A DNA stretch of 64,000 nucleotides from Gammaproteobacteria bacterium (GCA_030148865.1 JASBSR010000040.1:141145-205144), one strand, 5' to 3'. Counted from the first letter of the stretch, positions 2,802-25,102 are shown. Notes: a model not told the origin generated them from the sequence alone. Numbers and translations: made by a program.

Positions 2802-3995
2802 ATGGCCTTAGTTAACATGCGCGATATGCTCCAGCATGCTTACCAGCATGGCTACGCAGTGGGTGCCTTCGATCTGGTCAGTCTTGAATTTCTGGAAGGC
2901 ATCATGGATGCTGCCGAACGCTGCCATGCCCCGGTGATATTGAGTCTGGCAGAATCACATTTCGAATATTTTGATTTTGAACTGATCATGCCCGCAGTGG
3001 AAGCTGCCGCATTGCGCGCCTCGGTGCCGGTGGCTATTCATCTGGACCATGGTGAGAGTTTTGAATCGGCGCTACGCGGCATCCATCTTGGCTGCAACGG
3101 CATCATGGTCGATTCCTCACAACATACGCTCGCCGAGAACATACACATGACACGCGCCGTGGTCAACATGGCACACGCCTGTGGTGTTCCAGTCGAAGGC
3201 GAACTCGGTTATGTCCCTGGTGTTGAGGGCGAAGATGCCGAGCGCCATCCCGGCGAAATTGCCTATACCACAGTCGCCGAAGCCCACGATTATGTAACAC
3301 AGACCGCTGTCGACTTTCTCGCAGTCTCCATCGGCACGGTGCATGGTCGTATGCTGGGCGAACCCGAACTCGACTTCGAACGACTCCAGCAAATTAACGC
3401 AAGCCTGGGTATTCCACTGGTGATTCATGGCGGCACCGGGCTGAACGATGATCAATTTCGACAACTGATCGCCAGTGGTGTGAGTAAAATAAATTATTAC
3501 ACCGCGCTCGCCGACCGGGCCGGCATCCACATACGCGATAATGCTAGCAGTCACCAACAGAACGGCTACACAAGTTTAACCAAAGGCGTTAAAGCAGCGA
3601 TCAGTGCCGAAGTCGAGCGTTGCATACGCCTGTGGGGAAGCGCTGACCGTGCCGCAGCACTAATGACTCAGTGCGCGCCCTGGTCAGCAGTGGATCACCT
3701 GATTATCTACAACGTCAACAACATCAGCGAGCACGAAGTGGATGCCATCATGGCCGAAGGTCGGCGCGTACTCAGCAGCATCCCTGGTGTGCGCGAAGTG
3801 ATCACTGGCCGCGCCGTCAAACAGGATGCAAAGTATCGTTACACCTGGCTGGTACGTTTCTGTCACCCAGCAGTCATTGACAGCTATCGCGATCATCCCA
3901 GCCACGTGGCATTTGCCGATCAGTATTTCCGTCCGGTGGCGGGCGACCGTATTAGCATTGATTATGCACGAGTCTTACACAGCACTTATATTTAA
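2802..3995 (+). CDS. class II (zinc) ketose-/fructose-bisphosphate aldolase fused to a C-terminal Dabb (stress-responsive alpha/beta-barrel) domain
   Basis: 397 aa. Residues 1-285 align with KbaY/GatY-type class II aldolases (VAIHLDHGES, PVEGELGYVPGVEG, SIGTVHG, PLVIHGGTG, i.e. the three Zn-ligand His contexts). Residues ~295-397 (HLIIYNVNN...IPGVREV...YRYTWLVRF...HPSHVAFADQYF) match the Dabb/stress-responsive A/B barrel pattern including the HPxH motif. Confidence 0.8.
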   Translation: MALVNMRDMLQHAYQHGYAVGAFDLVSLEFLEGIMDAAERCHAPVILSLAESHFEYFDFELIMPAVEAAALRASVPVAIHLDHGESFESALRGIHLGCNGIMVDSSQHTLAENIHMTRAVVNMAHACGVPVEGELGYVPGVEGEDAERHPGEIAYTTVAEAHDYVTQTAVDFLAVSIGTVHGRMLGEPELDFERLQQINASLGIPLVIHGGTGLNDDQFRQLIASGVSKINYYTALADRAGIHIRDNASSHQQNGYTSLTKGVKAAISAEVERCIRLWGSADRAAALMTQCAPWSAVDHLIIYNVNNISEHEVDAIMAEGRRVLSSIPGVREVITGRAVKQDAKYRYTWLVRFCHPAVIDSYRDHPSHVAFADQYFRPVAGDRISIDYARVLHSTYI

Positions 3996-4215
3996 ACACT
4001 GTAACTAGAGTTCAGCACATGAATCACGACTTTAAAAACATGCCCGTTCTATCTTGCCTCGACCGCCCTTGCGGGTCGCGGCTCTGTCATTAATATGGGC
4101 GTGTTGGTGACAGGCTCAGCACTGGCTGACTCAGGATCTGAGCTTGATCAAGGAATTTACAAATAGTTAACGCAGTTAAGTCGTAAACTATGGCCAGGTC
4201 TTTATTTCACTCTGT

Positions 4216-5439
4216 TCAAGATTCAGCTGACATAGAATTCAATCGGTGAGAGTGGTTTTTATAAAACCACTTCATAGCGAAAGGTGGGATAACTGTGGTA
4301 AATACAATAACAATGACTAGGCTGGCATGAATTTCGTTATCAATTACACCGCTCAATCGGCCAAGCTCTGCAAAAATTAGTCCCACTTCACCCCGAGGTA
4401 TCATCGACATACCAATCAGTAAACGTGATGACCAGCTTTCACGAATAAATAAAGCACCGAGAAGTTTGCCGGCGAATGCGGATATCAGAAGAATTAAGGA
4501 AAAACTCCAGATATCTGACGAACCCCAGTCAATTTCTCTAAAATTTATCGACAGCCCGACCACGACAAAAAAGATTGGTGTAAATAAACTGATAATTGGC
4601 TGCATCTGGCGCTCAATCGAACTGGCAAAAGTTTCGTCCGTATGTAGACTTAAACCCAATGGAAGAAAAAATCGCCGCGAAAGAGCAAGTCCAGCAGCAA
4701 ATCCTCCCAATAGTTCTGGCGCACCGACACCGTGCGCTAACCAGGCAAAAAAGAGCACGAGTGAAACTATAGTCGTTGGCAATAATCCTGGTAGCTCACT
4801 GACAGCGTAGAAACGTTTAATAATCATTGACATGATTTTCGCTAGCACAGGCGCCATCACAAAGAACACAGTAACAAACACCAGAACTCTGCCAGAGCTG
4901 GAAAGGTTAACTTCGCCAGCGGTTGAGAACTCATACAGCATGGCCAGCAACATGACACCCATCACATCATCAAGCACAGCCGCACCAAGTACAATCTGGC
5001 CTTCATGTGAGTGATTGATTCCAAGCTCTGTCAAAACACGCACTGTAATACCAATGCTGGTCGCGGTAAGCGTGCCACCGATAAACATAGATTCAATAAC
5101 GGTGAACTCAAACAACCAGTAACCGGTGGCAAATCCAAGCAGCATTGGCGCTGCAAATCCAACCAGCGCAACCATAGTCGATTTCATCCCGGTATTGAGC
5201 AATCGCTTGATATCACTCCCTATTCCGACTTCGAACAGCAATAGAATAATACCAATCTCTGCCAGCAGCCTGAACGCTTCCACCGGTTCTACCCAGCCCA
5301 GTATGCTCGGCCCTATCAGGACGCCGGCGAATAACTCACCTATAACAGATGGCGCTTTAAGACGTACCGCGATTTCAGCAAAGATTCTTGCTGTCAGTAG
5401 AATAATCAGAAGATATAAAATAAATGTGTGCGATTGCAT
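4216..5439 (-). CDS. cation:proton antiporter (CPA family Na+/H+ exchanger membrane domain)
   Basis: 407 aa, 11-13 TM helices. The N-terminus LLIILLTARIFAEIAVRLKAPSVIGELFAGVLIGPSILG is the canonical Na_H_Exchanger start. No C-terminal TrkA/KTN domain. Confidence 0.75.
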   Translation of the reverse strand: MQSHTFILYLLIILLTARIFAEIAVRLKAPSVIGELFAGVLIGPSILGWVEPVEAFRLLAEIGIILLLFEVGIGSDIKRLLNTGMKSTMVALVGFAAPMLLGFATGYWLFEFTVIESMFIGGTLTATSIGITVRVLTELGINHSHEGQIVLGAAVLDDVMGVMLLAMLYEFSTAGEVNLSSSGRVLVFVTVFFVMAPVLAKIMSMIIKRFYAVSELPGLLPTTIVSLVLFFAWLAHGVGAPELLGGFAAGLALSRRFFLPLGLSLHTDETFASSIERQMQPIISLFTPIFFVVVGLSINFREIDWGSSDIWSFSLILLISAFAGKLLGALFIRESWSSRLLIGMSMIPRGEVGLIFAELGRLSGVIDNEIHASLVIVIVFTTVIPPFAMKWFYKNHSHRLNSMSAES

Positions 5440-6256: not shown

Positions 6257-6398
6257 GCTTTAGTCAATTAAAACGTGGCTGCCATTTGCTGTCAGCCGCT
6301 AGCACCAAGTGCGAGCACAACTGAATAGCACTGCTCAACTACTCAAAAATATCCCAATAGCGGCCGCGCGACCTGACAGGTGCGCGCGGCTGATTACC

Positions 6399-6560
6399 TT
6401 AAGGCTTCTTGGGGGTGCTGTAAGGCACTTCTTTCTGGAAAGATTCCCAGATAGTATCGTAGCCAACGTAGCCCTTTTCATTAGCCGCTTTTTGACGGGT
6501 GGTCAGAAAACGTGATTTGCCTTCTGGAACCTGAGGTCTGGTTTTTGGTGCATCACTCAT
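6399..6560 (-). CDS. small basic hypothetical protein (53 aa)
   Basis: MSDAPKTRPQVPEGKSRFLTTRQKAANEKGYVGYDTIWESFQKEVPYSTPKKP. Start chosen at the internal ATG because of a canonical AGGAG RBS 8 nt upstream (minus strand ...AGGAGTTACGATAATG). The longer ORF to 6635 lacks an RBS. Confidence 0.45.
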   Translation of the reverse strand: MSDAPKTRPQVPEGKSRFLTTRQKAANEKGYVGYDTIWESFQKEVPYSTPKKP

Positions 6561-6644
6561 TATCGTAACTCCTAAAATGGTTGAAACGGGAGGAATATAA
6601 GCATATGTCAGTCCCCCCCACTTAACTGACGTCAATAATACAAT

Positions 6645-7058
6645 CTATCGCTTGTAATGTCCCTTTTTGGGAATCACATGCCGCACACCTCCCTGGGGAT
6701 TCTCAACATCACCCTGATAGCGGGGAATGATGTGAATATGGACATGAAATATACTCTGTCCGGCTGCCGGCCCTACGTTAACGCCGATGTTATAGCCATC
6801 GGGGTTGAACTCCGCATCCAGCAGTTTGCGCTCCTCGGTGATCAGTGTCATGCAGGCATTGATCTCCTCGGGCGTCAGGTCGAAAAAGCTGGCGACATGA
6901 CGTCTGGGGATGATCAGGGTATGACCCGGGCTCACCGCATAGCTATCACGAGCGCTAAACGCAAGTTCGTTATTCAGCGACACCCCTTGCGGATCAGTAC
7001 AAAACAGGCATGGGTTATTAGGGTCTCGCTTTTTTTCCTGCTTGGCTTCTAATAACAA
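6645..7058 (-). CDS. HIT (histidine triad) family nucleotide hydrolase/transferase
   Basis: 137 aa. CLFCTD..., canonical HVHIHIIPR histidine triad. Confidence 0.85.
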   Translation of the reverse strand: MLLEAKQEKKRDPNNPCLFCTDPQGVSLNNELAFSARDSYAVSPGHTLIIPRRHVASFFDLTPEEINACMTLITEERKLLDAEFNPDGYNIGVNVGPAAGQSIFHVHIHIIPRYQGDVENPQGGVRHVIPKKGHYKR

Positions 7059-7261
7059 ACTTCAATACCCTGAATCTAAATGCTTTATTGGTCAGAAAAA
7101 CCACGGCTGAAAACCAGCCCTGATCTGTCATTTTCACATCTTTTGCCACAAAAATATAGCTTGCATCGGGTCAATAACGGTCATGCCGAATTGAACATAG
7201 TCGATAGAAAATCCATATTTTGTGAGCGGATTTTCTGAGCAGATTTGTTCAGTCTTTGCCA

Positions 7262-8284
7262 CTAAGCTTTTTCTAGCCGTAACTGCGCCTGCTTCAGCTG
7301 CTCCTCACAATGCTTTAAACACAGTGGTTGCAGGGCATGGCGAAAACATTCGATCATTAATTCAAACTCATCGGCCACCTCCAAGGCAAGTGCGGCATCT
7401 TTTGTCAACTCGGCCAGCGCACTGCGTGCAGTAGCCTTATTGACCCTGCATAGCACTGCCAGATGAATCGGAAGCTGCTGCTCCATGCATATTGTGAATG
7501 CTGTTTCATATGATCGTATAGCTTCTTCCAGGCGATCTGCATTTTCTTCTGACTGCCCCAGATGATGCAGTACCGCACCGCGATTATTATGGGTGGCGGC
7601 TAATTCCAGTGCCGTATTATCGGCATCAAACACGGCAAGTGCATTTTTATAAGCAACGACAGATTTTTGTAAAGTACGATTACCTTTAAGCAGTTTGCCA
7701 TGCGCATGCAAAGTGGTGCCGAGCTGATGCATGGTTGCCCCCCACTCCAGGGGCATTTTTTCTCTGCTCCATACCTGCAAGGCGTCGGTATAAGCGTCAG
7801 TGGCCTGTTTCAAACATTTCGCATCACCCAGTTGCCGGCCCAGTGCCTGGTTGGCTGTGCCCAGGTTATATTGTGCAGCGGCCCATTCCATTGCCGAATC
7901 TTCCTGATTGAACACTTCAAGTGCACTGTTAAATGATTGAATCGCCTTTTCGTACAAGACTTCATCTCGCATCTGCTGCGCCAGTGCCGCAAGAATATTG
8001 CCAAGACTATTCTGAGTCTCAGCCCAGACTAAGGGCCTCTGTTCGCGACATGCATCGGTCAGCGATTGTTCAAGTGCTTCACGGGCACTTTCAAGAATAT
8101 TGGAACTGAAACGGTGTTGCTCATAGTTCCCACGGGTATGAAGAAAATTATCAGCGGCGGTTACCTGGGTATCCGGCGCAGCAGCTGCGGCCAGCTCTTC
8201 ACCCAGCATGCCGATAGAATTCGCGATTGCAAGCTCCAGGGCCTTATTGTCCGGATAAAACAGGTACGTATTTGCGAATTTCAT
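7262..8284 (-). CDS. tetratricopeptide (TPR) repeat protein
   Basis: 340 aa made of repeated 34-residue W-LG-Y/A-F-P-like helical units (e.g. AAAQYNLGTANQALGRQLGDAKCLKQATDAYTDAL). Its start codon abuts the stop of the upstream FKBP gene (TAAATG). Confidence 0.7.
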   Translation of the reverse strand: MKFANTYLFYPDNKALELAIANSIGMLGEELAAAAAPDTQVTAADNFLHTRGNYEQHRFSSNILESAREALEQSLTDACREQRPLVWAETQNSLGNILAALAQQMRDEVLYEKAIQSFNSALEVFNQEDSAMEWAAAQYNLGTANQALGRQLGDAKCLKQATDAYTDALQVWSREKMPLEWGATMHQLGTTLHAHGKLLKGNRTLQKSVVAYKNALAVFDADNTALELAATHNNRGAVLHHLGQSEENADRLEEAIRSYETAFTICMEQQLPIHLAVLCRVNKATARSALAELTKDAALALEVADEFELMIECFRHALQPLCLKHCEEQLKQAQLRLEKA

Positions 8285-8791
8285 TTAGGTTCGGCTAAGA
8301 ATTTCATTGAGGTCAGGGTCGGCACCAACTGCTCCGCCAAGGTCGAGTTCTTCATCACTAGCATCACGTATAGTCAGAACTTCCACCATAAAAGTGACTT
8401 CTCTACCACACAGCGGATTATTTCCATCGACGGTTAATGTTTTGTCATCAAAACGAGTGACGATAAAATTTCTCGGCTCACCCTTTTCATTTTCCATGGT
8501 GATGGTCATACCGATTTCCCGATATTCCTCCGGGACATTTTCGATATGATCGGTAAACACCAGCGATTCGTCTCTCTCGCCATATAACAGCTTAGTGTCA
8601 ACTGGCACTTCGATGATATCACCGACTTTTTTGCCATCCAGATATTTTGTCACATCTTCAGACAGAACATCATTCACACCATGGACATAACCCAGAGGAT
8701 AATCAACCGTCACAAGTACGTCACCAGTTTTATTATCGACGACCCTGTAATTAAGTTCAACGAATTTTTCGTTTTGTATTGTATCTGACAT
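8285..8791 (-). CDS. FKBP-type peptidyl-prolyl cis-trans isomerase, SlyD/FkpB-like
   Basis: 168 aa. VVDNKTGDVL..DYPLGYVHG.. and ..GREVTFMVEVLTIRDASDEEL align with the SlyD FKBP plus insert-in-flap architecture. Confidence 0.7.
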   Translation of the reverse strand: MSDTIQNEKFVELNYRVVDNKTGDVLVTVDYPLGYVHGVNDVLSEDVTKYLDGKKVGDIIEVPVDTKLLYGERDESLVFTDHIENVPEEYREIGMTITMENEKGEPRNFIVTRFDDKTLTVDGNNPLCGREVTFMVEVLTIRDASDEELDLGGAVGADPDLNEILSRT

Positions 8792-8821: not shown

Positions 8822-9172
8822 TTAGAACAACGTAGCACCAAAAATTTTTATCTTCTCCTTTTCAAAGCCCAGCACCAGCCTGCCCAGCCATTCACTTTTA
8901 TCCTTGCTGTTCGTCTGTTTATAGAGCACCGTTACATACTCACCGCGACGGATGATACCAAGATATTCATAATCTGCTGACAGGTTTTTCGCCAGATCGC
9001 TCCTGGCAAACTGCTTACCCATCTCGATTTCATTCGCACCCATTTGCATAGCCGTTGAAAAATTTCGAGTGAAAGCACCGTAGTTTTGTTCATTCGAATA
9101 TTTAACAAGATCAGCCCACATCGGGTGCGCCACCTCTAAAATTTCTTCATCTGTTTTTTCAATAATATTCAT
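8822..9172 (-). CDS. hypothetical protein (116 aa), no recognisable family
   Basis: Clean ORF 30 nt upstream of the SlyD-like gene on the same strand, and downstream of the aprA terminator. AT-rich codon usage. No motif recognised. Confidence 0.4.
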   Translation of the reverse strand: MNIIEKTDEEILEVAHPMWADLVKYSNEQNYGAFTRNFSTAMQMGANEIEMGKQFARSDLAKNLSADYEYLGIIRRGEYVTVLYKQTNSKDKSEWLGRLVLGFEKEKIKIFGATLF

Positions 9173-9330: not shown

Positions 9331-11196
9331 CTATTCATCACCTACCAGGTGATAAAGAGGTGCTTTCTCCATTGTGTACTCACCAGTGTTGCGATCACGA
9401 TGGGAAACTGTCAGTACATGCCAGTTTTCATCATCCAGTTTCATCGCATCACCACGGTAGTAGTAACCAGGCCAACGTGTCTCCTTACGGAACAAGGTAT
9501 GCTGGAATACACTTTCGGAAGTCAGGTAACGATGTTTCAGTTCCCATGCACGTAACAGTTCATGGATATCCGAAGCAGCGATCATCTCCAGATCTTCGCC
9601 AAAAGTCTTCATTTTCTTAAGACCAATCTGGAGCAGCTTTTCGTTGGTCATGTAGTTGACACCAAAACCACCACAGTACTCGTCCATCATCTTCTGCAGA
9701 CGATCAAGACCCTGTCTTGGGTTGATGAAGTTAGGGTTAACAGTACCGGCAACCACTTCATTGCTATACACTTTATAAGTTTCTAATGGCTTGTAGATCT
9801 TATCTTTAAGATTAGAAATCTGCTCTTCAGAAACACGAATGCCTTCTGCTTTGCCATCATCAATATACTTACAGGCAGCTTTAGCAGCCAGACGACCTTC
9901 AGTGAAAGAACCCGATGAGAATGCGTGTGGTGTACCACCGACTGCATCACCGGCACCGAACAGACCTTCGACTGTGGTCATACGGTTGTAGCCCCAGAAA
10001 TACTCTTCAGGAGAAACATCTTCCGGACCCGAACACCATGCACCACAACCAGTGGCGTGTGAACCCATGACGTATGGCTCAGAAGTGGTTAATTCAGGGT
10101 TTTCGTATTTAGGATCAACGTCAGTTGCCGCCCAAAGTACTGCCTGACCAACAGTCATACCCAGGAAGTTGTGCCAGCCAATCTCCTCAAGATGCGGGTC
10201 CTGGAAGGCTTCCATGGTAACCATGTGAATTGGACCACGACCGGCATTCACTTCAGAGATAAATGCGTGGTTACGCAAACAGGTCGGGATTGGTTTATGG
10301 GATAAATGCTGGCCTTCGGTATCCAGATATTCTTTACCAACCATTTCCGTCAAAGCCGGGAACCACTTGGACTCATACTCTTCACCCAGACAGTTTTGGG
10401 TATAAGTCTTGAGATGCAGGAAGTAAGCGCCGACAGGACCGTAACCATCTTTGAATCGTGCCAGTACGATACGGTTTTCCATTTGCGTCATCTTCGCGCC
10501 AGCTTCGATCATCAGACCATAAGCAGAACCCGATGACCATGGTGCGTACCATACACGACCCGCGCCTTCACCAACTGAACGTGGTTTAAAGATGTTAGAA
10601 GCGCCACCAGCACCACAGATAACAGTCTTGGACTTGAATACGTGGTAGTTACCAGTACGTACGTTGAAGCCTACAGCACCTGCAACGCGGTTCGCTTTGG
10701 CATCATCCATTAACAGATGGGTTACGCAGATACGGTTGAATACTTTGTCTGCTGATTTTTTCGCGGCTTCGGCAACAATCGGCTTGTATGATTCACCGTG
10801 AATCATAATCTGCCAGCGACCTTCACGCATGTAGGTACCCGTCTTAGGGTTGCGCATTAATGGCAGGCCCCATTCTTCAAACTGGTGCACGGCAGAATCC
10901 ACGTGACGCGCCATATCAAATGCCAGGTCCTCACGCACCATCCCCATCAGATCCATACGCGCATAACGTACGTGATCTTCTGGGTTGTTTTCGCCGAAAC
11001 GTGTACCCATGTAACAGTTAATCGCATACAGACCCTGGGCTACCGCACCGGAACGATCGATGTTTGCTTTTTCAGCAATAACAATTTTTTTGTCCTTGCC
11101 CCAATATCTTGCTTCAAAGGCGGCACCGGTACCACCAAGGCCCGCACCTGCAACCAGGATGTCGATATCGTCTTCAATAATTGTTTTGTAAGCCAT
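9331..11196 (-). CDS. aprA: adenylylsulfate (APS) reductase alpha subunit, FAD flavoprotein
   Basis: 621 aa. The N-terminal FAD fold ILVAGAGLGGTGAAFEA, IMIHGESYKPI, MTTVEGLFGAGD and the C-terminal ETRWPGYYYR are hallmark AprA motifs (aligns along its length with A. fulgidus/A. vinosum AprA). Confidence 0.92.
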   Translation of the reverse strand: MAYKTIIEDDIDILVAGAGLGGTGAAFEARYWGKDKKIVIAEKANIDRSGAVAQGLYAINCYMGTRFGENNPEDHVRYARMDLMGMVREDLAFDMARHVDSAVHQFEEWGLPLMRNPKTGTYMREGRWQIMIHGESYKPIVAEAAKKSADKVFNRICVTHLLMDDAKANRVAGAVGFNVRTGNYHVFKSKTVICGAGGASNIFKPRSVGEGAGRVWYAPWSSGSAYGLMIEAGAKMTQMENRIVLARFKDGYGPVGAYFLHLKTYTQNCLGEEYESKWFPALTEMVGKEYLDTEGQHLSHKPIPTCLRNHAFISEVNAGRGPIHMVTMEAFQDPHLEEIGWHNFLGMTVGQAVLWAATDVDPKYENPELTTSEPYVMGSHATGCGAWCSGPEDVSPEEYFWGYNRMTTVEGLFGAGDAVGGTPHAFSSGSFTEGRLAAKAACKYIDDGKAEGIRVSEEQISNLKDKIYKPLETYKVYSNEVVAGTVNPNFINPRQGLDRLQKMMDEYCGGFGVNYMTNEKLLQIGLKKMKTFGEDLEMIAASDIHELLRAWELKHRYLTSESVFQHTLFRKETRWPGYYYRGDAMKLDDENWHVLTVSHRDRNTGEYTMEKAPLYHLVGDE

Positions 11197-11678
11197 TAGT
11201 AGTACACCCCTGCTTTCAATTTCAGGCCGTTTGATTTAAGCGTGTGCAAGCCACCCTCATCCATGCGGACATACTTAGGCTCGTTATACAATAGCTCACT
11301 GTCGCGCATTTCATTACTGGGTGCTGCTACTTCAGATAGCTGTGGGATACACGTTCCCCACGGCTTAGTGGTAATAGGTGCAAGCAGATCCATGTCTTTT
11401 TTGCCGTTGCGGAACTTGATGCGCCACGCAATCGTGCCTTTTTCTTCATCACGGTGCACGCGTACCGAGTGACCCAGTGGTGCGAAATCCGCATAGCCGC
11501 GCACATCAATCGCGTGGTGAGGGCAGGCTTTTACACAGGAATAACATTCCCAGCACATGTTTGGCTCAATGTTATAAGCACGACGCAGAGTTTTGTCGAT
11601 GTGCATGATGTCAGATGGGCAGATATCAACGCACTGCCCACAACCATCACATCGAGTCATATATACAAAAGTTGGCAT
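11196..11678 (-). CDS. aprB: adenylylsulfate reductase beta subunit (2x[4Fe-4S] ferredoxin-like)
   Basis: 160 aa. MPTFVYMTRCDGCGQCVDICPSDIMHID...YNIEPNMCWECYSCVKACPHHAIDVRGY has two Cx2Cx2Cx3CP clusters and the AprB-specific tail (WRIKFRNGK...TKPWG). Start overlaps the aprA stop. Confidence 0.92.
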   Translation of the reverse strand: MPTFVYMTRCDGCGQCVDICPSDIMHIDKTLRRAYNIEPNMCWECYSCVKACPHHAIDVRGYADFAPLGHSVRVHRDEEKGTIAWRIKFRNGKKDMDLLAPITTKPWGTCIPQLSEVAAPSNEMRDSELLYNEPKYVRMDEGGLHTLKSNGLKLKAGVYY

Positions 11679-13726: not shown

Positions 13727-14695
13727 TTAATGCACTCCCAGTAACTGCACACTGAACATTTTCGCTGGGTCGGTCCAGACTTGCTCGACCGCGAAACCCG
13801 CCTTTCCGGCCAGTCGGGCAAATTCATCGAGGCTGTACTTGTAGGAGCTCTCGGTGTGAATGCTCTCTCTGGCTGTTAGCTCGAAGACTTCATCATCGAG
13901 CATGATCGTCTGTCTGCGTTCACTCACCAGATGCATTTCTACCCGGCTTTGCTCCGGGTTGTAGAAAGCCTGATGGTGGAAGGCATCGAGTTCAAGTTCA
14001 GCTGCCAGCTCGACCTGGATACGTTGTAATAAATTGAGATTAAACGCGGCGGTAACACCGGCTGCATCGTTATAGGCACGGTTTAAAATTACACTATCTT
14101 TTTTCAGATCGACACCGATCAGCAATTTTCCGCCCTTGCCAACACAAGCGGCCACCTGCCGCAAAAACTGTAGCGCCGATGTCGGTTCAAAATTACCAAT
14201 ACTGGAACCGGGGAAAAACGCTACCACCTGACCACGTTGCGCCTGTACAGGTAACTCCAGCTGCTGCGAAAAATCGGCACACACCGCGTGCACTTCCAGT
14301 TCGGGATAATCCTGTGCCAGACGCCGGGTTGATAACAGCAAAAACTCTTTTGAAATATCCACCCCCATGTAACTCGCAGGTGATAAGGCATCGAACAGAA
14401 CCCGGACTTTTTCACTGGCACCGCTGCCGAGTTCCACCAGCACCGATTCGGCCCCGATCAGCGCCGCAATCTGCCGCGCATTATGCTGCAGAATACTGAT
14501 CTCGGTTCGCGTCGGATAATATTCGGGCTGCAAACAAATTTCATCGAACAGTTCAGAGCCACGCTGATCGTAGAAAAACTTGGGCGATATTTTTTTCGGC
14601 ACGCGCGACAGACCTTCGACCACCTCGGCGAGAAAGTCACTGCCCGTGGGCGCATAATCGTGAAACTTAACCTGACGTTTGGCGACTGTGCTCAT
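13727..14695 (-). CDS. egtD: L-histidine N(alpha)-methyltransferase (ergothioneine biosynthesis EgtD)
   Basis: 322 aa. [45 protein letters not shown] and TAAFNLNLL match the EgtD family nearly motif-for-motif (M. smegmatis EgtD [30 protein letters not shown]). Confidence 0.85.
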   Translation of the reverse strand: [322 protein letters not shown]

Positions 14696-15984
14696 GCGTC
14701 CTCCGCGAGGCGTATGCCGCTGAACTGCCAGCGGTCGGCGGGATAAAAGAAATTGCGATAACTCGCGCGAATATGGTCTTGCGGAGTGGCAAACGAGCCA
14801 CCGCGCAATACCATCTGGCTACTCATGAACTTGCCGTTATATTCACCGATGGCACCGGCTGCCGGACGATAGCCCGGATAGGCGCGGTAAGAACTCGCAG
14901 TCCATTCCCAGACATCACCGTAAAGCTGTGTCATCTGATTCGATTGCGCGGGCAGAGTTTGCAGTGCCGCCTGCTCGCGTAAATTACCGGCAATAGTGTG
15001 CTGACTGGCAACCTGCTCCCATTCAAATTCTGTCGGCAGGCGTTTGCCCGCCCAGCGCGCATAAGCATCGGCTTCGAATAAACTGACATGGCACACGGGT
15101 GCCGCAAGATCTATCGCCTGCATACCCTGCAAACTAAACTGCCACCAGTTATCATCGCGCCGTTCCCAGTACAGCGGTGCCAGCCAACCCTGCTGTTGAA
15201 TCACAGCCCAGCCTTCGGACAGCCAGAACTCGGAACGCCGATAACCACCATCATTAATAAATTCAAGATACTCGGCATTGCTGACCAAACGACTGGCGAG
15301 CGCAAAATCTTCCAGCCAGACTTTGTGGCGCGGGCCTTCGTTATCGTAAGCGAAGCCATGGCTGTTACTTACATCGTGACCGACTTCGATCAGGCCACCG
15401 GAAAAGTTTTGCCAGGCCAGGGACACAGGCATGGCGCTGGTTTGTTTCAGCTTTGTAGATCGGGTCTCGAGGTAAGCAGGTTTTAGCGGATTATGCGACA
15501 GGATATGTTTGATGTCAGTGTAAAGCAACTCCTGATGTTGTTGCTCGTGGTTAAGCCCCAGCATCAGTAAAAATTCAAGCTCACGGTAATGCGACTCATC
15601 CAGCGTAAGCAGTAATGCTTGCATCGCTGAGTCAACAGTTTCGCGATAGTGCAAAATGTCTTTCAGAGTTGGTCGCGAGAGAAAACCACGCTGTGCTCGC
15701 GTAAACGGCTGGCCGTGGGTTAAATAATAAGAGTTAAACAGATGATCATAAGCAGGATGAACCGCTGTGTAATGCCTGGCAAAGCGGGTAAGTAAAAAGG
15801 TTTCAAAAAACCAGGTGGTGTGCGCCAGATGCCACTTTGGCGGGCTGACGTCCACCATAGTCTGAATACAATGATCTTCAGTTTCCAGCGGCGCGCATAT
15901 CGCAAGTGACTCGCGACGTATCGCTGAATAAGCATCCAGCAATTGTTCGCGCGGTATCTGTTCCGCCCGGCGTGCAGTGCTCAT
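14692..15984 (-). CDS. egtB: ergothioneine biosynthesis sulfoxide synthase EgtB (DinB_2 + FGE-sulfatase domains)
   Basis: 430 aa. N-terminal DinB-like four-helix domain (HLAHTTWFFETFLL), C-terminal FGE-like domain (GDVWEWTASSY...RGGSFAT). 4-nt overlap with egtD; GGAGGG RBS. Confidence 0.85.
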   Translation of the reverse strand: MSTARRAEQIPREQLLDAYSAIRRESLAICAPLETEDHCIQTMVDVSPPKWHLAHTTWFFETFLLTRFARHYTAVHPAYDHLFNSYYLTHGQPFTRAQRGFLSRPTLKDILHYRETVDSAMQALLLTLDESHYRELEFLLMLGLNHEQQHQELLYTDIKHILSHNPLKPAYLETRSTKLKQTSAMPVSLAWQNFSGGLIEVGHDVSNSHGFAYDNEGPRHKVWLEDFALASRLVSNAEYLEFINDGGYRRSEFWLSEGWAVIQQQGWLAPLYWERRDDNWWQFSLQGMQAIDLAAPVCHVSLFEADAYARWAGKRLPTEFEWEQVASQHTIAGNLREQAALQTLPAQSNQMTQLYGDVWEWTASSYRAYPGYRPAAGAIGEYNGKFMSSQMVLRGGSFATPQDHIRASYRNFFYPADRWQFSGIRLAEDA

Positions 15985-19277: not shown

Positions 19278-19527
19278 AGGTCACCTCTCTCTGCAAACAA
19301 GCTGTGCATTATACCGGAATATGGCGACAGCTGAATCCGCCTTAATGGGTGTTAAAAATATGATTTGGCGACAGAGGCACAGAGGAGACGGAGATAAATA
19401 CGGTTCAAAATAATAAATACAGAAAGCACAGATTTCGTAATACTATTTACCTGTTTTCCAACTTTATGGCACCTTTAGAAAGCAACTCTGTGTCCTCTGT
19501 GCTTTTGTGGCAAATTTTTAAGGGCTT

Positions 19528-21315
19528 TTAAGACTGGCTATCCAGCGGCGGCGGTGCCACGCGCATGACTTCTTCAATCGTGGTCAACCCCTGGGCAATT
19601 TTACTGGCGCCGCTTAAGCGCAGCGGTCGTAAACCATCCTTCACTGCTTGTTTACGCAAAGCCTGGAGATCGGCATTATCGGTGATCAAACGGCGGATAT
19701 CCTGCGAGAAACTGAACATTTCGTACACGCCCATGCGCCCCATATAACCAGTGTTACGGCATTCGAGGCAACCCACGGGTTTATAGACTGTTTCTGGTTT
19801 CAGCGCCTTCCAGGGTTTGACCAGCAGCTTCCAGTCTTCATCGCTGATCGGTGTCGCTGCCTTGCAGTGCGGGCACAGGGTGCGCACCAGCCGCTGCGCC
19901 ATAATACCGAGCACCGAGGACTGCACCAGATAAGGCGGAACACCTATGTCGAGCAGCCGCGAAATCGCCGCCGGGGCGTCGTTGGTGTGCAGGGTGGATA
20001 GCACCAGATGACCGGTGAGCGCAGCCTGAATTGCCATTTCGGCTGTTTCCATATCGCGAATTTCGCCGATCATAATAATATCGGGATCCTGCCGCATGAG
20101 GGTACGCACACCACGGGAAAAATCCAGGTCAATATTTTTTTGTACCTGCATTTGATTAAACGCCGGTTCGACCAGTTCGATCGGATCCTCGATGGTGCAA
20201 ACATTCACATCTGGTCTGGCGAGTAACTTCAGCGTCGAGTACAGGGTGGTGGTTTTACCCGACCCGGTGGGACCGGTAACCAGAATAATTCCGTGTGGCT
20301 GCTGGATCATTTTACGCCAGATGTCTTCATCGCTATTACTAAAACCGAGATCGGTGAAACTTTTGACGATCACTTCAGGGTCAAAAATACGCATCACCAT
20401 TTTTTCACCAAACGCAGTCGGCATGGTGGATAAGCGCAGTTCGACTTCCTGACCTTCCGGGGTGCGGGTTTTTAAGCGCCCGTCCTGAGGCCGACGTTTT
20501 TCGGCAACGTCCATGCGACCGAGTATTTTAATGCGACTCGACACAGCCGCCATCACCGCTGTCGGTATCTGATACACCTCGTGCATGACACCATCAATGC
20601 GAAACCGCACATTACTCATTTCACGGCGCGGTTCAAGATGAATATCACTGGCGCGCTGATCGAATGCATATTGCAATAACCAGTCAACAATATTGATGAC
20701 GTGCTGGTCGTTAGCGTCGAGCTTGCCGGCACGACCCAACTCCATCATCGATTCCAGATTTTGCAAATTGCCGACAAATGGATCGGCATCGGCCTGAGCA
20801 CCAAGTACAGATTTAGACACCGAATAAAACTCGAGCAGGAAACGGCGAATATCATCTGGGTTCGCGATTACCAGTTCAAAGTTCTGTTTATTAATGCGCG
20901 AAAGCTCATTCACCCATTCGCGCTGGAAAGGTTGCGCGGTGGCGACGGTAATGACTTTGTCTGTTACCTTCACTGGCAATACATTGTAGCGAGCAGCATA
21001 AGCGTAGGACATCACCGAAGTCACGCGCGTGACTTCAACTCTGAGCGGATCAATGCGTCGATACGGCAGGCTAACGTGATCCGCAAACCAGACGGTGAGC
21101 ACTTCCAGCGTCAGCGGTTTGCCGGTTTTGATATTTTTCCAGCCACGTTCGGCGATAAATTCCAGCGGATGCTTGTGCTCGTACTTGCCACTGGATGCCA
21201 GCGAACGCAGCATAGCGGCATTTTCGCTATCGACCATACCATCGGCTTCCAGCCAGTCGAGAATATCCGGAACCCTGAGTTCGCGTTCTTTATGTTTTTC
21301 GATGACTGCGCTCAT
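19528..21315 (-). CDS. GspE/PilB-family secretion ATPase (type II secretion / type IV pilus ATPase superfamily), orphan
   Basis: 595 aa. Walker A GPTGSGKTTTLYS, Asp box, Walker B DPDIIMIGEIRD, His box LVLSTLHTND, tetracysteine CPHC...CLEC zinc motif, and a ~180-aa N-terminal GspE_N/MshEN-like domain. No gspF/pilC/pilD neighbours. Confidence 0.85.
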   Translation of the reverse strand: MSAVIEKHKERELRVPDILDWLEADGMVDSENAAMLRSLASSGKYEHKHPLEFIAERGWKNIKTGKPLTLEVLTVWFADHVSLPYRRIDPLRVEVTRVTSVMSYAYAARYNVLPVKVTDKVITVATAQPFQREWVNELSRINKQNFELVIANPDDIRRFLLEFYSVSKSVLGAQADADPFVGNLQNLESMMELGRAGKLDANDQHVINIVDWLLQYAFDQRASDIHLEPRREMSNVRFRIDGVMHEVYQIPTAVMAAVSSRIKILGRMDVAEKRRPQDGRLKTRTPEGQEVELRLSTMPTAFGEKMVMRIFDPEVIVKSFTDLGFSNSDEDIWRKMIQQPHGIILVTGPTGSGKTTTLYSTLKLLARPDVNVCTIEDPIELVEPAFNQMQVQKNIDLDFSRGVRTLMRQDPDIIMIGEIRDMETAEMAIQAALTGHLVLSTLHTNDAPAAISRLLDIGVPPYLVQSSVLGIMAQRLVRTLCPHCKAATPISDEDWKLLVKPWKALKPETVYKPVGCLECRNTGYMGRMGVYEMFSFSQDIRRLITDNADLQALRKQAVKDGLRPLRLSGASKIAQGLTTIEEVMRVAPPPLDSQS

Positions 21316-21327
21316 AATATTAGCGGT

Positions 21328-21618
21328 TTACATTGTGGGCCGAATATCAAACCGGCTGAAATACTCAAATGTTGCGTCCTGTACCTCTATAGTAGACACT
21401 TTTGCCTGTGTCGGGCCAATTTCGAGCCAGTTTTTCAGTGTAAGCTGCTGGTCTGCAGAGCCACAGGCATACACTTCGACCCGACCATCACGCAGATTTC
21501 GTACCCAGCCAGTGAGAGCCAGTTGCTGCGCTCGCTCCTGCGTGGCGACTCTGTAACACACGCCCTGCACCCGCCCGCTGATGAAATATCGCTGGCAGAC
21601 CATTGCCGTTGCTGTCAC
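21328..21618 (-). CDS. acyP: acylphosphatase
   Basis: 96 aa. VSGRVQGVCYRVATQERAQQLALTGWVRNLRDGRVEV matches the acylphosphatase signature VQGVxFR...GWVxNxxDGxVE. 4-nt overlap with the upstream MFP gene. Confidence 0.8.
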   Translation of the reverse strand: MTATAMVCQRYFISGRVQGVCYRVATQERAQQLALTGWVRNLRDGRVEVYACGSADQQLTLKNWLEIGPTQAKVSTIEVQDATFEYFSRFDIRPTM

Positions 21619-22415
21619 GGTAACAGCAAACTGACACTGTCTCCCGGTTTGAATAAACCACCGGGGTCGACCGCGAACACAACTTTGAGCGCATAGCTCT
21701 GCCCGGCTGCATCGCCTGGGGTCATCGCCATACTCTGAACACTGCCCGTATAATCCTGACCACGATAGCGCACCTTGATCGCCTGACCAAGCTGCAGCTG
21801 ACTCAGTACTTCATAACTCACCTGAGCCACGGCGAGCCGAGCGTCGGCACGCGCCAGCACGATCAAGGGCTGAATGCGTAGATCACCGGTTATCACCTGA
21901 CCGGACTCGATGTTCCGGTTAATGACCCAGGCAGCCCAGGGCGCGTACTGCGTGGCGCGCGACAGTTTCACGGTGGCTTCGGTGAGCAGCGCCTTAGTTT
22001 CGCCCAGTTTTGCATTAGCAATGTCAAACGCCATTTTGGCGTGCTGTAATTCAACATCGGAAAGTACGGTCTGTTCGTAAAGCGCCTGAGCATCGCGATA
22101 CTCGCGCTGGGCATCAGTCAATGCTGGATACGCCGCCGCTACCCGTGCTTGCGCCTGTTTTACTTTTGCCGACAGCACCGCTGTATTTAAGGCAAATAAT
22201 TTTTCGCCTTTGTTCACACGCTGCCCCACCTGCACGAATACACTATCGACAAAACCATTTACCGGTACGCTGGCATAATGCAGTTCTGCCCAGCCAAGTC
22301 TGGCAGCAACTTCAGCGCTTTGCACTGACAGTGCAAACAGAAACAAACTGCCCGCCAGCCAGCAACGCAGGCCTGTCTTTATGATTTTAATTTTCATTGG
22401 CTTCACCCGTGGCAA
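21615..22415 (-). CDS. HlyD-family periplasmic adaptor (membrane fusion protein), minimal form with signal peptide
   Basis: 266 aa. Signal peptide, lipoyl/biotinyl-like half-domain (VFVQVGQRVNKGEKLFALNT), alpha-helical hairpin, beta-barrel. No membrane-proximal domain. Confidence 0.7.
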   Translation of the reverse strand: MPRVKPMKIKIIKTGLRCWLAGSLFLFALSVQSAEVAARLGWAELHYASVPVNGFVDSVFVQVGQRVNKGEKLFALNTAVLSAKVKQAQARVAAAYPALTDAQREYRDAQALYEQTVLSDVELQHAKMAFDIANAKLGETKALLTEATVKLSRATQYAPWAAWVINRNIESGQVITGDLRIQPLIVLARADARLAVAQVSYEVLSQLQLGQAIKVRYRGQDYTGSVQSMAMTPGDAAGQSYALKVVFAVDPGGLFKPGDSVSLLLP

Positions 22416-23775
22416 AAACTTGAAACGATACCTTTTGATGATCGATTACGCTACGCGGCATCTGCCCGGTTAGCATCGTCAAACGCATTGCTGCGACAAT
22501 AGTGTCAAATTTATTTTTTGTCTGTAAATAACGAACCCGCGAAGTATTCACCAGAGTGTCGCCATAGTCAGTGCGCAATTCAAGCTCATATTCACCCCGA
22601 CTTTTATCAAGTGCACGGTCAGCGGCGCGGGCTGCAGTTTTAAGCCCCTCAGCTTCGGACAGTAAATTTTTAATCCCCAGCCAAAGATCGTATACCTGCT
22701 TGCGAACATCCGACTGCAAGCGCGAATACTCAGCCCGCCGCTGTAACCAGAGCACACGTTGGTCAGATATCTGCGATTTCACGCGTGCGTTTTCAAACAA
22801 CGGAATTTTAAGATTGAGCGAAGCGCGCCAGTTCTCGCGCGAAGGCAACTTACGTGTATATTCAATCACTTCTACTTCTGCATCCAGTGATGGTCGTGAT
22901 AACTTACGTGCAGCTTCCATTGCAACCTGTGCGGCGTCAACCCGACGCGCCTGCGCCTGAATTCCAACATTCGACTGCATCGCACGTTTGATCAGTATTT
23001 CAACATCTGGCAGCTTTAAATCAGTCAGATCGACCCCAGGTGCGACCAGTTCTGCCGAAAGCTCGCCAGGACGATTGATTACCTCTGCCAGCTGCGCGCG
23101 ACTGATGCGCTGCAAAGTTTCAGTGTTGCGTCTAACCGTCAGTAATTGCTGATAGTCGGTTTCTGCACTGAGCAAATCAATTTCCGAAACCTGTTTTAAA
23201 TCGTACCGGTCACGCATTTTGTCAACGCGCACGTACAGCATCGACATGGCCTCGTTATCCCAGGAGAACTTTATGTCTGACAAAATTGCATCAAAAAAAC
23301 TACGCGCTATTGCAATCTGCTGTTGCGCGAGAACACGGCGATAGTCGAGTTGCTCAGCATCGATAGCTGTTTCGGCGGCTTCGATACGGGTACTGCCATA
23401 ACCAAAATCATACAGGGGCTTGCGAATATTCAGGCTTGCCTTGTGATCGTTTGGTGAAAGATCAAATGCATTGGCGGCAGGCTCGATGCGAGCAGCTTCA
23501 AGATTGATTTCAGCTTCCAGTGCATAATCACCCTGTACGCGCTGCAGACCTGCACGCGCCGCCTGTTCTCGCGATTGCGCCGCAAACAGCACAGGCTGAA
23601 GCTCAGATGAGCCGATCATCATCGCCTGCTGTAGATTAAGAGGCGTCGGCAGTGGCTCCGCTGCCCAGAGCACACCACTGTAAAGCAGAGCCATATAGTA
23701 GCAACTGCGAAACCCCATCGGGGTGACAGCATCGAAGATATGCCATCGACTGTACGCCTGTTGCCTGACAGTCAT
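22387..23775 (-). CDS. TolC-family outer membrane efflux/secretion channel (true start probably internal, M20 or M28, giving a signal peptide)
   Basis: 462 aa with the two-repeat OEP architecture (long helical segments alternating with beta-strands). 29-nt overlap with the MFP gene. Confidence 0.75.
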   Translation of the reverse strand: MTVRQQAYSRWHIFDAVTPMGFRSCYYMALLYSGVLWAAEPLPTPLNLQQAMMIGSSELQPVLFAAQSREQAARAGLQRVQGDYALEAEINLEAARIEPAANAFDLSPNDHKASLNIRKPLYDFGYGSTRIEAAETAIDAEQLDYRRVLAQQQIAIARSFFDAILSDIKFSWDNEAMSMLYVRVDKMRDRYDLKQVSEIDLLSAETDYQQLLTVRRNTETLQRISRAQLAEVINRPGELSAELVAPGVDLTDLKLPDVEILIKRAMQSNVGIQAQARRVDAAQVAMEAARKLSRPSLDAEVEVIEYTRKLPSRENWRASLNLKIPLFENARVKSQISDQRVLWLQRRAEYSRLQSDVRKQVYDLWLGIKNLLSEAEGLKTAARAADRALDKSRGEYELELRTDYGDTLVNTSRVRYLQTKNKFDTIVAAMRLTMLTGQMPRSVIDHQKVSFQVFATGEANEN

Positions 23776-23780
23776 GCGAA

Positions 23781-24311
23781 TTAGTTCGGCTTCTTATTGT
23801 TCAACTTGTAGCGTGTAAAACTCATCTCACGAAATTTTTCATCGATCACATAACGCCCTAACAGCATAAAATCATCAGTCCCCGAAGTCGGCCCGGTAAA
23901 TCGCGTCACCGCCTGGCCTTTCAGGTTATAAAAAATAAACACCGGTGTCGCGCGCACTCGATTCACCTTGAAAGCAAAGTCTTTTTCTTTCATGGCGACT
24001 CCGGTCATATCATGAATTTCAATGTCACCTTCTATATCAACCGGGAATATCAGAAAGTTTTTCTGAAAAAAGTCCTGCACTTCAGACTGGTTCAAAACTG
24101 TCGCTTTCATACGCGCACAAAACGGGCATTCATCCTGCTCAAACATGAGCAAAATACCTTTCTTGCCTGCTGCTTTCGCCTGCTGCAGCTCTTCAGAAAA
24201 ATCCCCCAGTGTCTGGTTGAAAAAATTACCCTCCACATCACGGATTTCAGCATGCGCCAGTTGAGCGATAACGAATAGCGTCATGAATAAAAATTTCAAC
24301 CCGCACCTCAT
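23781..24311 (-). CDS. periplasmic thioredoxin-fold protein (CPFC active site)
   Basis: 176 aa. Signal peptide MTLFVIAQLAHA, then GILLMFEQDECPFCARMK, a thioredoxin-like CxxC. Confidence 0.7.
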   Translation of the reverse strand: MRCGLKFLFMTLFVIAQLAHAEIRDVEGNFFNQTLGDFSEELQQAKAAGKKGILLMFEQDECPFCARMKATVLNQSEVQDFFQKNFLIFPVDIEGDIEIHDMTGVAMKEKDFAFKVNRVRATPVFIFYNLKGQAVTRFTGPTSGTDDFMLLGRYVIDEKFREMSFTRYKLNNKKPN

Positions 24312-24377
24312 TAAACTGTATGTGATAGCAGAACCCTGTAAAACTATAGGACGCTATACCACAGGTGTAATTCCCAA

Positions 24378-24406
24378 ACAAAAAAAGGCCCGAGAACGGG
24401 CCTTTC
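24378..24406 (-). terminator. rho-independent terminator after LysM lipoprotein gene
   Basis: Minus-strand reading GGCCCGTTCTCGGGCC followed by TTTTTTTG, 22 nt after the stop. Confidence 0.75.
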
Positions 24407-24427: not shown

Positions 24428-25102
24428 TTACTTGTTGAGGTAGTCCAGATCAGACTGCTCAACGTCGCCTACCGACCAGGCACCACGAGTTTTGGCGTGA
24501 TTAATAGCGGCATTGATCTCGGCAGATGACGCATTCTGATCGATATCCAGCACCTGCCCGGGGCGAATCAGGTCAGCATCTTTGATCTGGCTACGGTTGG
24601 TTTTATAAATCAGCGGCCACTGATAAGGATTGGCATAGACTTCATCCTTACCTGAAATGTTCCACAGATTGTCGCCACCCTGAACAGAGTAACTGCTGAC
24701 TTTGCCAGCGGCTGACTGGTTGCTGTCCTGTGCCAGACTGCTACCCGAAAGCGCGGCACGATCTGCGGCACTCAGACTGTCGAGATATTTCTGATGCTCG
24801 GCAGCTTGCTGTTTAATGGCATCTTCGGCCTGTGCCTGAGCTTTATTAGCCAGCTTGATCGCTTCATCAGTGTTGCCGTCGGCCAGTGCGGCTTCGGCTT
24901 TCTTGATAAGTTTACCAGTGTCGCGCCACTCGTAGCCAACCGCTTTAGCATCCGTGTTGGCAGCTTTTGCTGAAGCAATCGCCTGTTCAGCTGCAGCGGT
25001 AGCATCATTGGTCGAGGAACCAGTGTCTTCTGTGGTAGCACAGCCAGCCATTAAACCCAGGCTGAGGAATGCAACTGAAATCAGTCTTGCGGGTGTACGC
25101 AT
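24428..25102 (-). CDS. lipoprotein with C-terminal LysM peptidoglycan-binding domain
   Basis: 224 aa. Lipobox LMAGC, Ala/Lys-rich linker, C-terminal LysM (YSVQGGDNLWNISGK...ADLIRPGQVLDI). Confidence 0.8.
   Translation of the reverse strand: MRTPARLISVAFLSLGLMAGCATTEDTGSSTNDATAAAEQAIASAKAANTDAKAVGYEWRDTGKLIKKAEAALADGNTDEAIKLANKAQAQAEDAIKQQAAEHQKYLDSLSAADRAALSGSSLAQDSNQSAAGKVSSYSVQGGDNLWNISGKDEVYANPYQWPLIYKTNRSQIKDADLIRPGQVLDIDQNASSAEINAAINHAKTRGAWSVGDVEQSDLDYLNK

Follow-up and report, generated by a model that had tools for sequence, protein, structure and literature searches.

The stretch of DNA analysed here, a 64,000-nucleotide window from a Gammaproteobacteria bacterium (GCA_030148865.1 JASBSR010000040.1:141145-205144), carries on its minus strand, between positions 19528 and 24311, five packed open reading frames (ORFs). 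In the direction of reading, they encode a thioredoxin-fold protein, a TolC-family outer-membrane factor, a short periplasmic adaptor, an acylphosphatase and an ATPase of the GspE/PilB type (Table 1). A preliminary description, made from the sequence alone, had proposed that the five genes may form one undescribed envelope or secretion module. We find the ORFs exactly at the coordinates given there, and Pfam and NCBIfam searches with each of them agree with the domains that had been assigned. The block is nevertheless probably a composite operon, in which a conserved envelope module (23781-21328) is followed by a functionally separate gene, tfpB (21315-19528).

Table 1. Genes and boundary features of the five-gene block; positions are those of the window.
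Feature	Position	Strand	Evidence or remark
Intrinsic-terminator-like hairpin	24383-24406	-	Ends the LysM/DUF4398-type lipoprotein gene; 10-bp stem, 6 G-C pairs, T-run
Two overlapping sigma-70-like sites	24315-24371	-	9/12 consensus matches only; just 5' of the thioredoxin ATG
Thioredoxin-fold protein, periplasmic, signal peptide, CPFC	23781-24311	-	Pfam Thioredoxin_2 59.3 bits, Thioredoxin_7
TolC-family outer-membrane factor	22387-23775	-	Pfam OEP 76 bits, two repeats
Soluble mini periplasmic adaptor	21615-22415	-	HlyD_3/HlyD_D23; TIGR01730 RND_mfp 103.6 bits vs cutoff 94.9
Acylphosphatase (acyP), cytoplasmic	21328-21618	-	Pfam Acylphosphatase 81.6 bits
TfpB-type PilB paralogue (tfpB), last gene of the unit	19528-21315	-	T2SSE 443.7 bits + MshEN 60 bits; NF053534
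Imperfect 29-nt inverted repeat	19365-19514		79% complementary, arms 92 nt apart

The clean terminator previously seen after the LysM gene is indeed a G+C-rich hairpin with a T-run, and it is the upstream boundary of the transcription unit. The two sigma-70-like sites are predicted promoters by consensus match alone, which is no proof of function, and within 19528-24311 a consensus scan of the minus strand returned nothing that resembles a promoter or terminator. Gene spacing and this signal scan together suggest that the five genes are co-transcribed from a putative promoter region at ~24.32-24.37 kb. Within the unit, the 12-nt gap between acyP and the ATPase gene is firm, and the two overlaps that had been described depend on the choice of start codon. 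The 29-nt overlap of the TolC and adaptor genes holds only with a TTG start, as the adaptor begins at the ATG at 22397 in public gene calls (260 aa), which leaves an 11-nt overlap; likewise, the 4-nt overlap of the adaptor gene with acyP requires a GTG start, and the public call begins at an ATG 15 nt downstream. No canonical terminator was found 3' of tfpB. The 250-nt spacer between tfpB and the following DUF302 gene holds the inverted repeat of Table 1, which may be a 3' boundary structure of the unit: the only two window matches to its core motif (at most three mismatches) are its own arms, a count reached by 5 of 100 shuffles, and the RNA fold of the region has an energy of -46.1 kcal/mol (z = -2.4). 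A search of the whole window against Rfam gave nothing at gathering thresholds.

The ATPase is best understood through its family. It passes the cutoff of the NCBIfam equivalog model for the type IV pilus assembly ATPase TfpB (NF053534; 914.8 bits against 850) and covers positions 4-583 of 584, and it lies under the cutoffs of the GspE (537 against 630) and PilB (534.8 against 675.65) equivalogs. Its motifs are in place, with Walker A at residue 348, the Asp box at 375, Walker B at 410, the His box at 434 and the CPHC/CLEC cysteines at 481 and 516. The nearest solved structures, by sequence matches in the PDB, are PilB proteins, and eight out of eight ATPases tested from diverse related loci pass the TfpB cutoff as well (896-940 bits). 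By these matches we assign the window ATPase to the TfpB family, as a paralogue of PilB. TfpB was found in Acinetobacter baylyi by Ellison et al. (2021, PMC8213720) as a phylogenetically distinct homologue of PilB, and it is required there, along with PilB, for the extension of type IVa pili (PMC8213720; reviewed in PMC11656802). The name stems from the absence of pilB-like synteny with pilC, and the protein serves the usual type IV pilus machinery (PMC8213720).

This definition bears directly on the orphan position of the gene, which the preliminary description had regarded as unexplained by known type I, type II or type IV pilus architectures. Since the TfpB family is defined by its lack of pilC synteny (PMC8213720), such a position is expected and not anomalous. 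Family scans covered about 55 of the roughly 70 ORFs of the window, with a few scanned ORFs left without any family match, and among those scanned there is no GspF/PilC (T2SSF), pilin or prepilin peptidase gene. Thus tfpB is not syntenic with pilC or pilD here, and its neighbours vary across the 80 related loci described below. The window annotation likewise shows no cluster of the type II secretion or type IV pilus kind, with platform and (pseudo)pilin genes beside the ATPase. Minor pilins or PilY1 had been suspected in the block at 31.8-40.3 kb, the genes of which proved to be YhdP, RNase G, Maf, RlmH, RsfS and NadD. The window protein shares with A. baylyi TfpB the full-length match to the equivalog model, a PilB-like architecture with intact catalytic boxes and a location away from pilC and pilD; it differs in that its gene closes an operon that begins with envelope genes, with acyP as the upstream neighbour in this lineage. 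By orthology, the window TfpB would be expected to serve in pilus extension.

Gene neighbourhoods argue in the same direction. The TfpB alignment was scanned against one genome per species, which gave 80 loci from Gamma- and Betaproteobacteria (58-77% identity) with highly variable neighbours. The trio of thioredoxin, TolC and adaptor lies upstream of tfpB in only three of the 80 loci (L010, L028 and L034), and acyP directly upstream in nine. Seven close relatives (L002-L004 and L006-L009), in which TfpB is 71-77% identical, have the order LysM-acyP-tfpB-DUF302-Grx-CysG and no trio, while one further locus (L165), with a TfpB 90% identical, carries the same five genes as the window. The adaptor of that locus is only ~60% identical to that of the window, so within one operon the rate of change is much higher in the envelope genes than in the ATPase; in more distant loci TolC is 27-40% and the adaptor 25-31% identical where TfpB is 60-71% identical. 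The idea of a five-gene order conserved as a unit was to fall if relatives held the genes in unlinked contexts, and for the ATPase this is the situation in most of the 80 genomes.

Viewed from the thioredoxin, a smaller unit emerges. An alignment of four thioredoxins yielded 5535 homologues and, as a sample independent of the TfpB loci, 80 metagenomic loci, the genes of which were labelled by iterated profile searches, with order counts taken only from loci with enough sequence. TolC comes after the thioredoxin in 47 of 60 such loci, the adaptor after TolC in 28 of 31 and acyP after the adaptor in 19 of 22, the median junction in the module being -4 nt. TfpB follows the module in two of the 19 assessable loci and is absent from the other 17; L084, L166, L167 and L169 are individual examples of the module without it. 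A TlpA-like redoxin (AhpC-TSA/Redoxin, WCPPC) usually precedes the thioredoxin in relatives. The module sits in a common chromosomal backbone of purN-purM, DUF2066-Hda, FMN_red-ArsC and LysM on one side and SLT-ProS on the other, and this backbone, purMN-Hda-ArsC ... SLT-ProS, carries the module with or without tfpB. An unrelated housekeeping gene, proS, served as an internal control. Of 12 loci, five have proS and two have tfpB within 5 kb downstream of the module, so the linkage of tfpB is not above background synteny. From the locus counts and the proS control together we conclude that the conserved unit is thioredoxin-TolC-adaptor-acyP, with tfpB as an optional passenger at its 3' end. The neighbourhoods support the view that the thioredoxin and the acylphosphatase belong with the TolC/adaptor pair and not with the ATPase.

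Some variation in this unit deserves mention. In 12 of the 60 assessable loci acyP follows the thioredoxin gene directly, and in about a fifth of the thioredoxin-anchored loci it stands directly after the gene of the CPFC thioredoxin, at a median gap of 39 nt, with no TolC, adaptor or TlpA-like gene (L093, L096, L097, L103-L105, L110, L113, L115, L123, L129, L140, L143 and L152). Because of these loci, thioredoxin and acylphosphatase appear as the constant pair, between which TolC and adaptor are optional. The thioredoxin homologue of Beggiatoa alba (L082) stands alone. A NarL/GerE-type response regulator, which may regulate the module, lies beside it in ~13 loci, including L084, L136, L137, L151, L156, L157 and L164, where it is upstream of the TlpA-like gene; in L094 (7674-9831) and L130 (7584-9787) a response regulator and a histidine kinase, divergently oriented, stand between the TlpA-like and thioredoxin genes.

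The adaptor is the most unusual member of the envelope set. Its AlphaFold2 model (mean pLDDT, the predicted local distance difference test, 89.3) consists of a signal helix, a lipoyl domain, a hairpin with two helices of 33-36 residues and a beta-barrel, with nothing after it. The earlier assignment of only lipoyl, hairpin and barrel domains behind a signal peptide is upheld by this model and by its match to the AcrA core: AcrA ranks first in a Foldseek search (TM-score 0.71-0.75), and the best fit is the AcrA fragment 2f1m, which lacks the membrane-proximal domain (0.75 on the query, 0.86 on the target). TriB and MexJ are the best sequence matches in the PDB, with MacA also among the best. 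As modelled, the protein would have a hairpin of AcrA length and neither a membrane-proximal domain nor a lipid anchor nor a transmembrane helix. Its N-terminus looks like a cleavable Sec signal peptide with a 14-residue hydrophobic core, as do all 24 of the 24 aligned adaptor N-termini, and a possible lipobox occurs in just one of these. Conservation within the protein is highest at the hairpin tip (L106, Y107, L112, S113 and L117), which reproduces what we take to be the L-x6-S spacing of the RLS motif of AcrA. Short adaptors of this kind are numerous. A word-indexed search gave ~35 clusters of 248-268 aa, separated by a clear score gap from canonical adaptors of 370-430 aa, and 758 representatives (at 50% identity) reached E <= 1e-30 in an exhaustive profile search; the top 150 of these are all 243-306 aa long, and the length in the family is uniformly ~255 aa. 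The possibility that the window adaptor is a truncated pseudogene was rejected on this family size and uniform length.

Its TolC-like partner can be placed in the superfamily only, as it scores 82 bits with TIGR01844, under the cutoff of 225, and 76 bits with OEP against a cutoff of 22. It has no lipobox, and since its signal peptide begins near residue 20 the true start may lie downstream of the annotated one. Judged by sequence and model, the TolC/adaptor pair would resemble the outer half of a tripartite pump, minus the cognate transporter and the domain that couples to it. A review of adaptors relates membrane-proximal domains to transporters with large periplasmic domains and transmembrane helices to membrane-buried transporters (PMC4446572). 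Against this scheme, the mini-adaptor has neither the membrane-proximal domain of adaptors for resistance-nodulation-division (RND) or MacB transporters nor the N-terminal transmembrane helix of those for major facilitator superfamily (MFS) or ATP-binding cassette (ABC) transporters (PMC4446572). With AcrA and MexA, which work with TolC or OprM in RND and MacAB pumps, it shares the hairpin-lipoyl-barrel core, the invariant L-x6-S tip and an adjacent TolC-family gene. It differs from them in lacking the membrane-proximal domain, the lipid anchor and any transmembrane helix, in having no RND, ABC or MFS gene adjacent and in being always flanked by a periplasmic thioredoxin and usually by an acylphosphatase. 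With EmrA and HlyD it shares the absence of a membrane-proximal domain, and some members of its family weakly match Pfam HH_EMRA; EmrA and HlyD, however, contact the transporter with an N-terminal transmembrane helix, their hairpin is longer and a transporter gene lies adjacent (PMC4446572).

Is the missing transporter a local accident? Among the scanned ORFs of the window there is no ABC, RND or MFS exporter gene, which, together with the absence of platform genes, bears out the statement that the window holds no inner-membrane transporter or platform. Neighbours were also clustered in more than 80 loci, and in 56 loci all ORFs of at least 800 aa or with at least six transmembrane segments were sought within 6 kb of the module; no ABC, RND or MFS transporter gene recurs in that range. 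One RND gene was seen near related loci, at a locus without the module. The explanation that a transporter lies adjacent in relatives and was merely lost or relocated here was accordingly rejected, as none recurs in the 56 loci. A tripartite pump is recognised by an adaptor gene that stands with the gene of a cognate ABC, RND or MFS transporter, and neither the scanned window nor the 56 related loci offer one. The puzzle that the preliminary description saw in a TolC protein and a minimal adaptor without an inner-membrane transporter is therefore real, and it is conserved and not a local loss. The only recurring membrane protein near the module is of the BrkB/YihY family (PF03631), encoded upstream in ~13 loci (L094 at 6284-7105 and 12 others), and a UPF0114 membrane protein is encoded in two loci (L166 at 7532-8074 and L167 at 3953-4513). 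These genes for small polytopic proteins lie on the same strand, often immediately upstream of the TlpA-like or thioredoxin gene; among the window genes scanned there is no BrkB/YihY or UPF0114 homologue.

The thioredoxin and the acylphosphatase are the remaining members of the set. The CPFC active site is found in 75 of 84 thioredoxin homologues. The AlphaFold2 model of the window protein (pLDDT 92.4) is nearest to the folds of HP0377, the DsbD gamma domain and DsbH (TM-score 0.63), with a sequence match to 4fyb (E = 2e-6) and a weak NCBIfam match to DsbH. The nearest folds and sequences are thus those of reducing-branch proteins (the DsbD gamma domain, Helicobacter pylori HP0377 and Chlamydia DsbH), with which it also shares export and a CxxC site; it differs from them in its 13-20% identity, in the distinct CPFC motif and in that no DsbD/CcdA electron donor is encoded nearby. 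This modest similarity suggests a reducing-type thioredoxin. The acylphosphatase matches NCBIfam PRK14442 with 100.3 bits (cutoff 98) and keeps the motifs GRVQGVCYR and GWVRN, so that the phosphate-binding loop VxGxVQGVxFR and the catalytic Asn that characterise the family (PF00708) are both present. The catalytic loop is kept in all 35 of 35 module-linked acylphosphatases, and the window protein has no signal peptide.

How might such a composite operon work? On the reading that we consider probable, TfpB would help to extend ordinary type IVa pili, as its homology to the A. baylyi protein suggests, by way of a PilC platform, pilins and a secretin encoded elsewhere in the genome. Its gene would stand at the 3' end of the module by inherited local synteny and not as a power source for TolC and the adaptor. 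For the module itself, we speculate that six adaptor copies attach by their conserved hairpin tips to the tip of the TolC trimer, and that this assembly forms an exit duct for periplasmic cargo handled by one or more reducing-type thioredoxins. Both the hexamer docking and the redoxin-handled cargo are parts of a model that we infer from the architecture and the gene neighbours. The role of the acylphosphatase in the module is left unexplained by such a duct. Whether the duct needs a pump divides the model further: we tentatively favour docking on an inner-membrane pump encoded at an unlinked site over a duct without one, and the latter, working with no pump at all, we regard as unlikely.

Several points weigh against this reading. 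An adaptor without a membrane-proximal domain and without a transmembrane anchor fits neither known mode of transporter coupling (PMC4446572), which weakens the sub-model of the unlinked pump. The sampled loci share ancestry, so counts such as those of module and tfpB are not independent events. In addition, tfpB directly follows the module in two sequence-distant configurations, namely adaptor-acyP-tfpB (the window, L165, L085, L010 and L163) and adaptor-tfpB without acyP (L028, L034, L083 and L168), between which TfpB is only ~60% identical, and the gaps are as small as 10-45 nt. Such an old and tight linkage of tfpB to the module could reflect some functional tie.

The alternative that fares best concerns the envelope genes and not the ATPase. 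It holds that TolC and the mini-adaptor form a pump-independent, redox-linked exit duct, in which the adaptor opens TolC, cargo such as a reduced peptide or a thiol or sulfur compound diffuses out and one or more thioredoxins prepare the cargo or gate the duct. The conserved lack of a transporter gene within 6 kb in 56 loci speaks for it, as do the absence from the adaptor of both known means of coupling, the constant linkage to periplasmic CPFC and WCPPC redoxins and a host that, with AprBA, is a likely sulfur oxidiser. We know of no precedent for a TolC system without a transporter, which counts against it, and the outer membrane would leak through a duct that stays open without a gate. Adaptor binding, on the other hand, can open outer-membrane factors without transporter or energy (PMC4446572). 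The beta-barrel domain might yet dock on an RND or MacB pump encoded elsewhere, the cytoplasmic acylphosphatase finds no place in the scheme, and the case is built entirely on architecture and on absence of evidence. On balance we hold this alternative to be rather unlikely.

For the ATPase, a second alternative had been raised in the preliminary description, that of a standalone regulator of the MshEN type that binds cyclic di-GMP (c-di-GMP) and rides on an efflux operon, merely co-expressed with its genes and no pilus motor. A Pfam MshEN match at residues 83-168 (E = 2.3e-16) and the isolation of the gene from platform genes would suit it. The match, however, spans the part of the N-domain that is common to all PilB/GspE proteins. 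The tandem motif for c-di-GMP binding, which Wang et al. are said to have defined in 2016 as RLGxx(L/V/I)(L/V/I)xxG(L/V/I)(L/V/I)xxxxLxxxLxxQ, was searched for with regular expressions in residues 1-200 of the ATPase; neither the strict nor the core form is present, and a single loose match of 12 residues is out of register. The protein shares the Pfam domain match with MshE and the other c-di-GMP-binding MshEN ATPases and, by this motif test alone, differs from them in lacking the canonical motif; there are also no msh pilus genes nearby. Its catalytic boxes and zinc-binding cysteines are all intact, and it is a TfpB equivalog. A c-di-GMP regulator is thus improbable, and of the earlier suggestion it is the rider that stands and the regulator that does not.

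The main proposal of the preliminary description, a single new secretion machine with the GspE/PilB-type ATPase as the energy source of the TolC/adaptor duct, is less probable still. It gains from the tight packing, from the absence of internal terminator or promoter matches and from the adjacency of the adaptor gene or acyP to tfpB in two diverged lineages. It is contradicted by the identity of the ATPase as a TfpB equivalog, whose family occurs mostly in unrelated contexts, by the module without the ATPase in 17 of 19 assessable loci and by the close relatives with acyP-tfpB that have lost the trio or never had it. Moreover, there is no polytopic platform that could join a cytoplasmic ATPase to a soluble periplasmic adaptor, and linkage to the module is more frequent for proS than for tfpB. 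These patterns of presence and absence largely refute the single machine. What survives of the proposed five-gene module is a pump-less set of four genes; the ATPase drops out of it. Finally, that the TolC and adaptor genes are a functionless, decaying remnant of a tripartite pump, as the missing transporter gene and the fast divergence of both sequences (27-40% and 25-31% identity against 60-71% for TfpB) might suggest, is the least credible option in view of their intact reading frames, the 758 representatives of uniform ~255 aa, the invariant hairpin-tip residues, a Sec signal peptide on every N-terminus and a gene order that dozens of loci share, with 4-nt overlaps.

The rest of the window offers context for the host. 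The genes aprBA for adenylylsulfate (APS) reductase at 9331-11678 and egtD/egtB at 13727-15984 point to a sulfur-oxidising gammaproteobacterium. Downstream of aprBA lie three unassigned ORFs (8822-9172, 8285-8791 and 7262-8284), of which the two larger have no Pfam match at 1e-6. The LysM lipoprotein upstream of the block (24428-25102) resembles in its N-terminal region the SoxAX-binding protein SAXB, with 84.9 bits under a cutoff of 95, and the equivalent region in L166 and L167 is split into separate DUF4398 and LysM genes. The ORF at 2802-3995 encodes a fusion of a class II fructose-bisphosphate aldolase with a C-terminal Dabb (stress-responsive A/B barrel) domain, and at 41925-42581 a protein of 218 aa ends in a PEP-CTERM-type C-terminal sorting signal, with weak NCBIfam PEP-CTERM matches and no Pfam match. 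The remaining scanned genes are housekeeping genes; among the scanned set are AprBA, EgtBD, CysG, Hda, PurMN, YhdP, RNase G, LeuS, Lnt, GlmS and NhaA.

The composite reading removes a false lead: a GspE/PilB-type ATPase beside TolC and an adaptor is here best read as a second pilus motor of the TfpB type, and not as a new ATP-driven secretion machine; it comes from a family that is widespread in Gamma- and Betaproteobacteria in variable contexts. The four-gene envelope set is conserved separately and is apparently undescribed, in that a limited search of the full-text literature on acylphosphatase with TolC and thioredoxin, on TlpA with TolC and a membrane fusion protein, and on acylphosphatase neighbourhoods returned no description of the module. 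What is left is a cleaner puzzle, namely a large family of short soluble adaptors always paired with a TolC-like protein and a CPFC thioredoxin, usually with an acylphosphatase as the last member, and never with a pump gene adjacent. We raise, as a doubtful possibility, that thioredoxin, TolC-like protein, mini-adaptor and acylphosphatase, often joined by the TlpA-like redoxin, are a distinct undescribed envelope system of sulfur-oxidising and related Gammaproteobacteria, a pump-less duct opened by an unanchored adaptor that releases thiol- or sulfur-linked periplasmic cargo under redox control. If the pair does work without a transporter, or by a new form of coupling, this would extend the rule that adaptor architecture follows transporter type, and it would suggest that sulfur-cycling bacteria have a redox-linked route of export.

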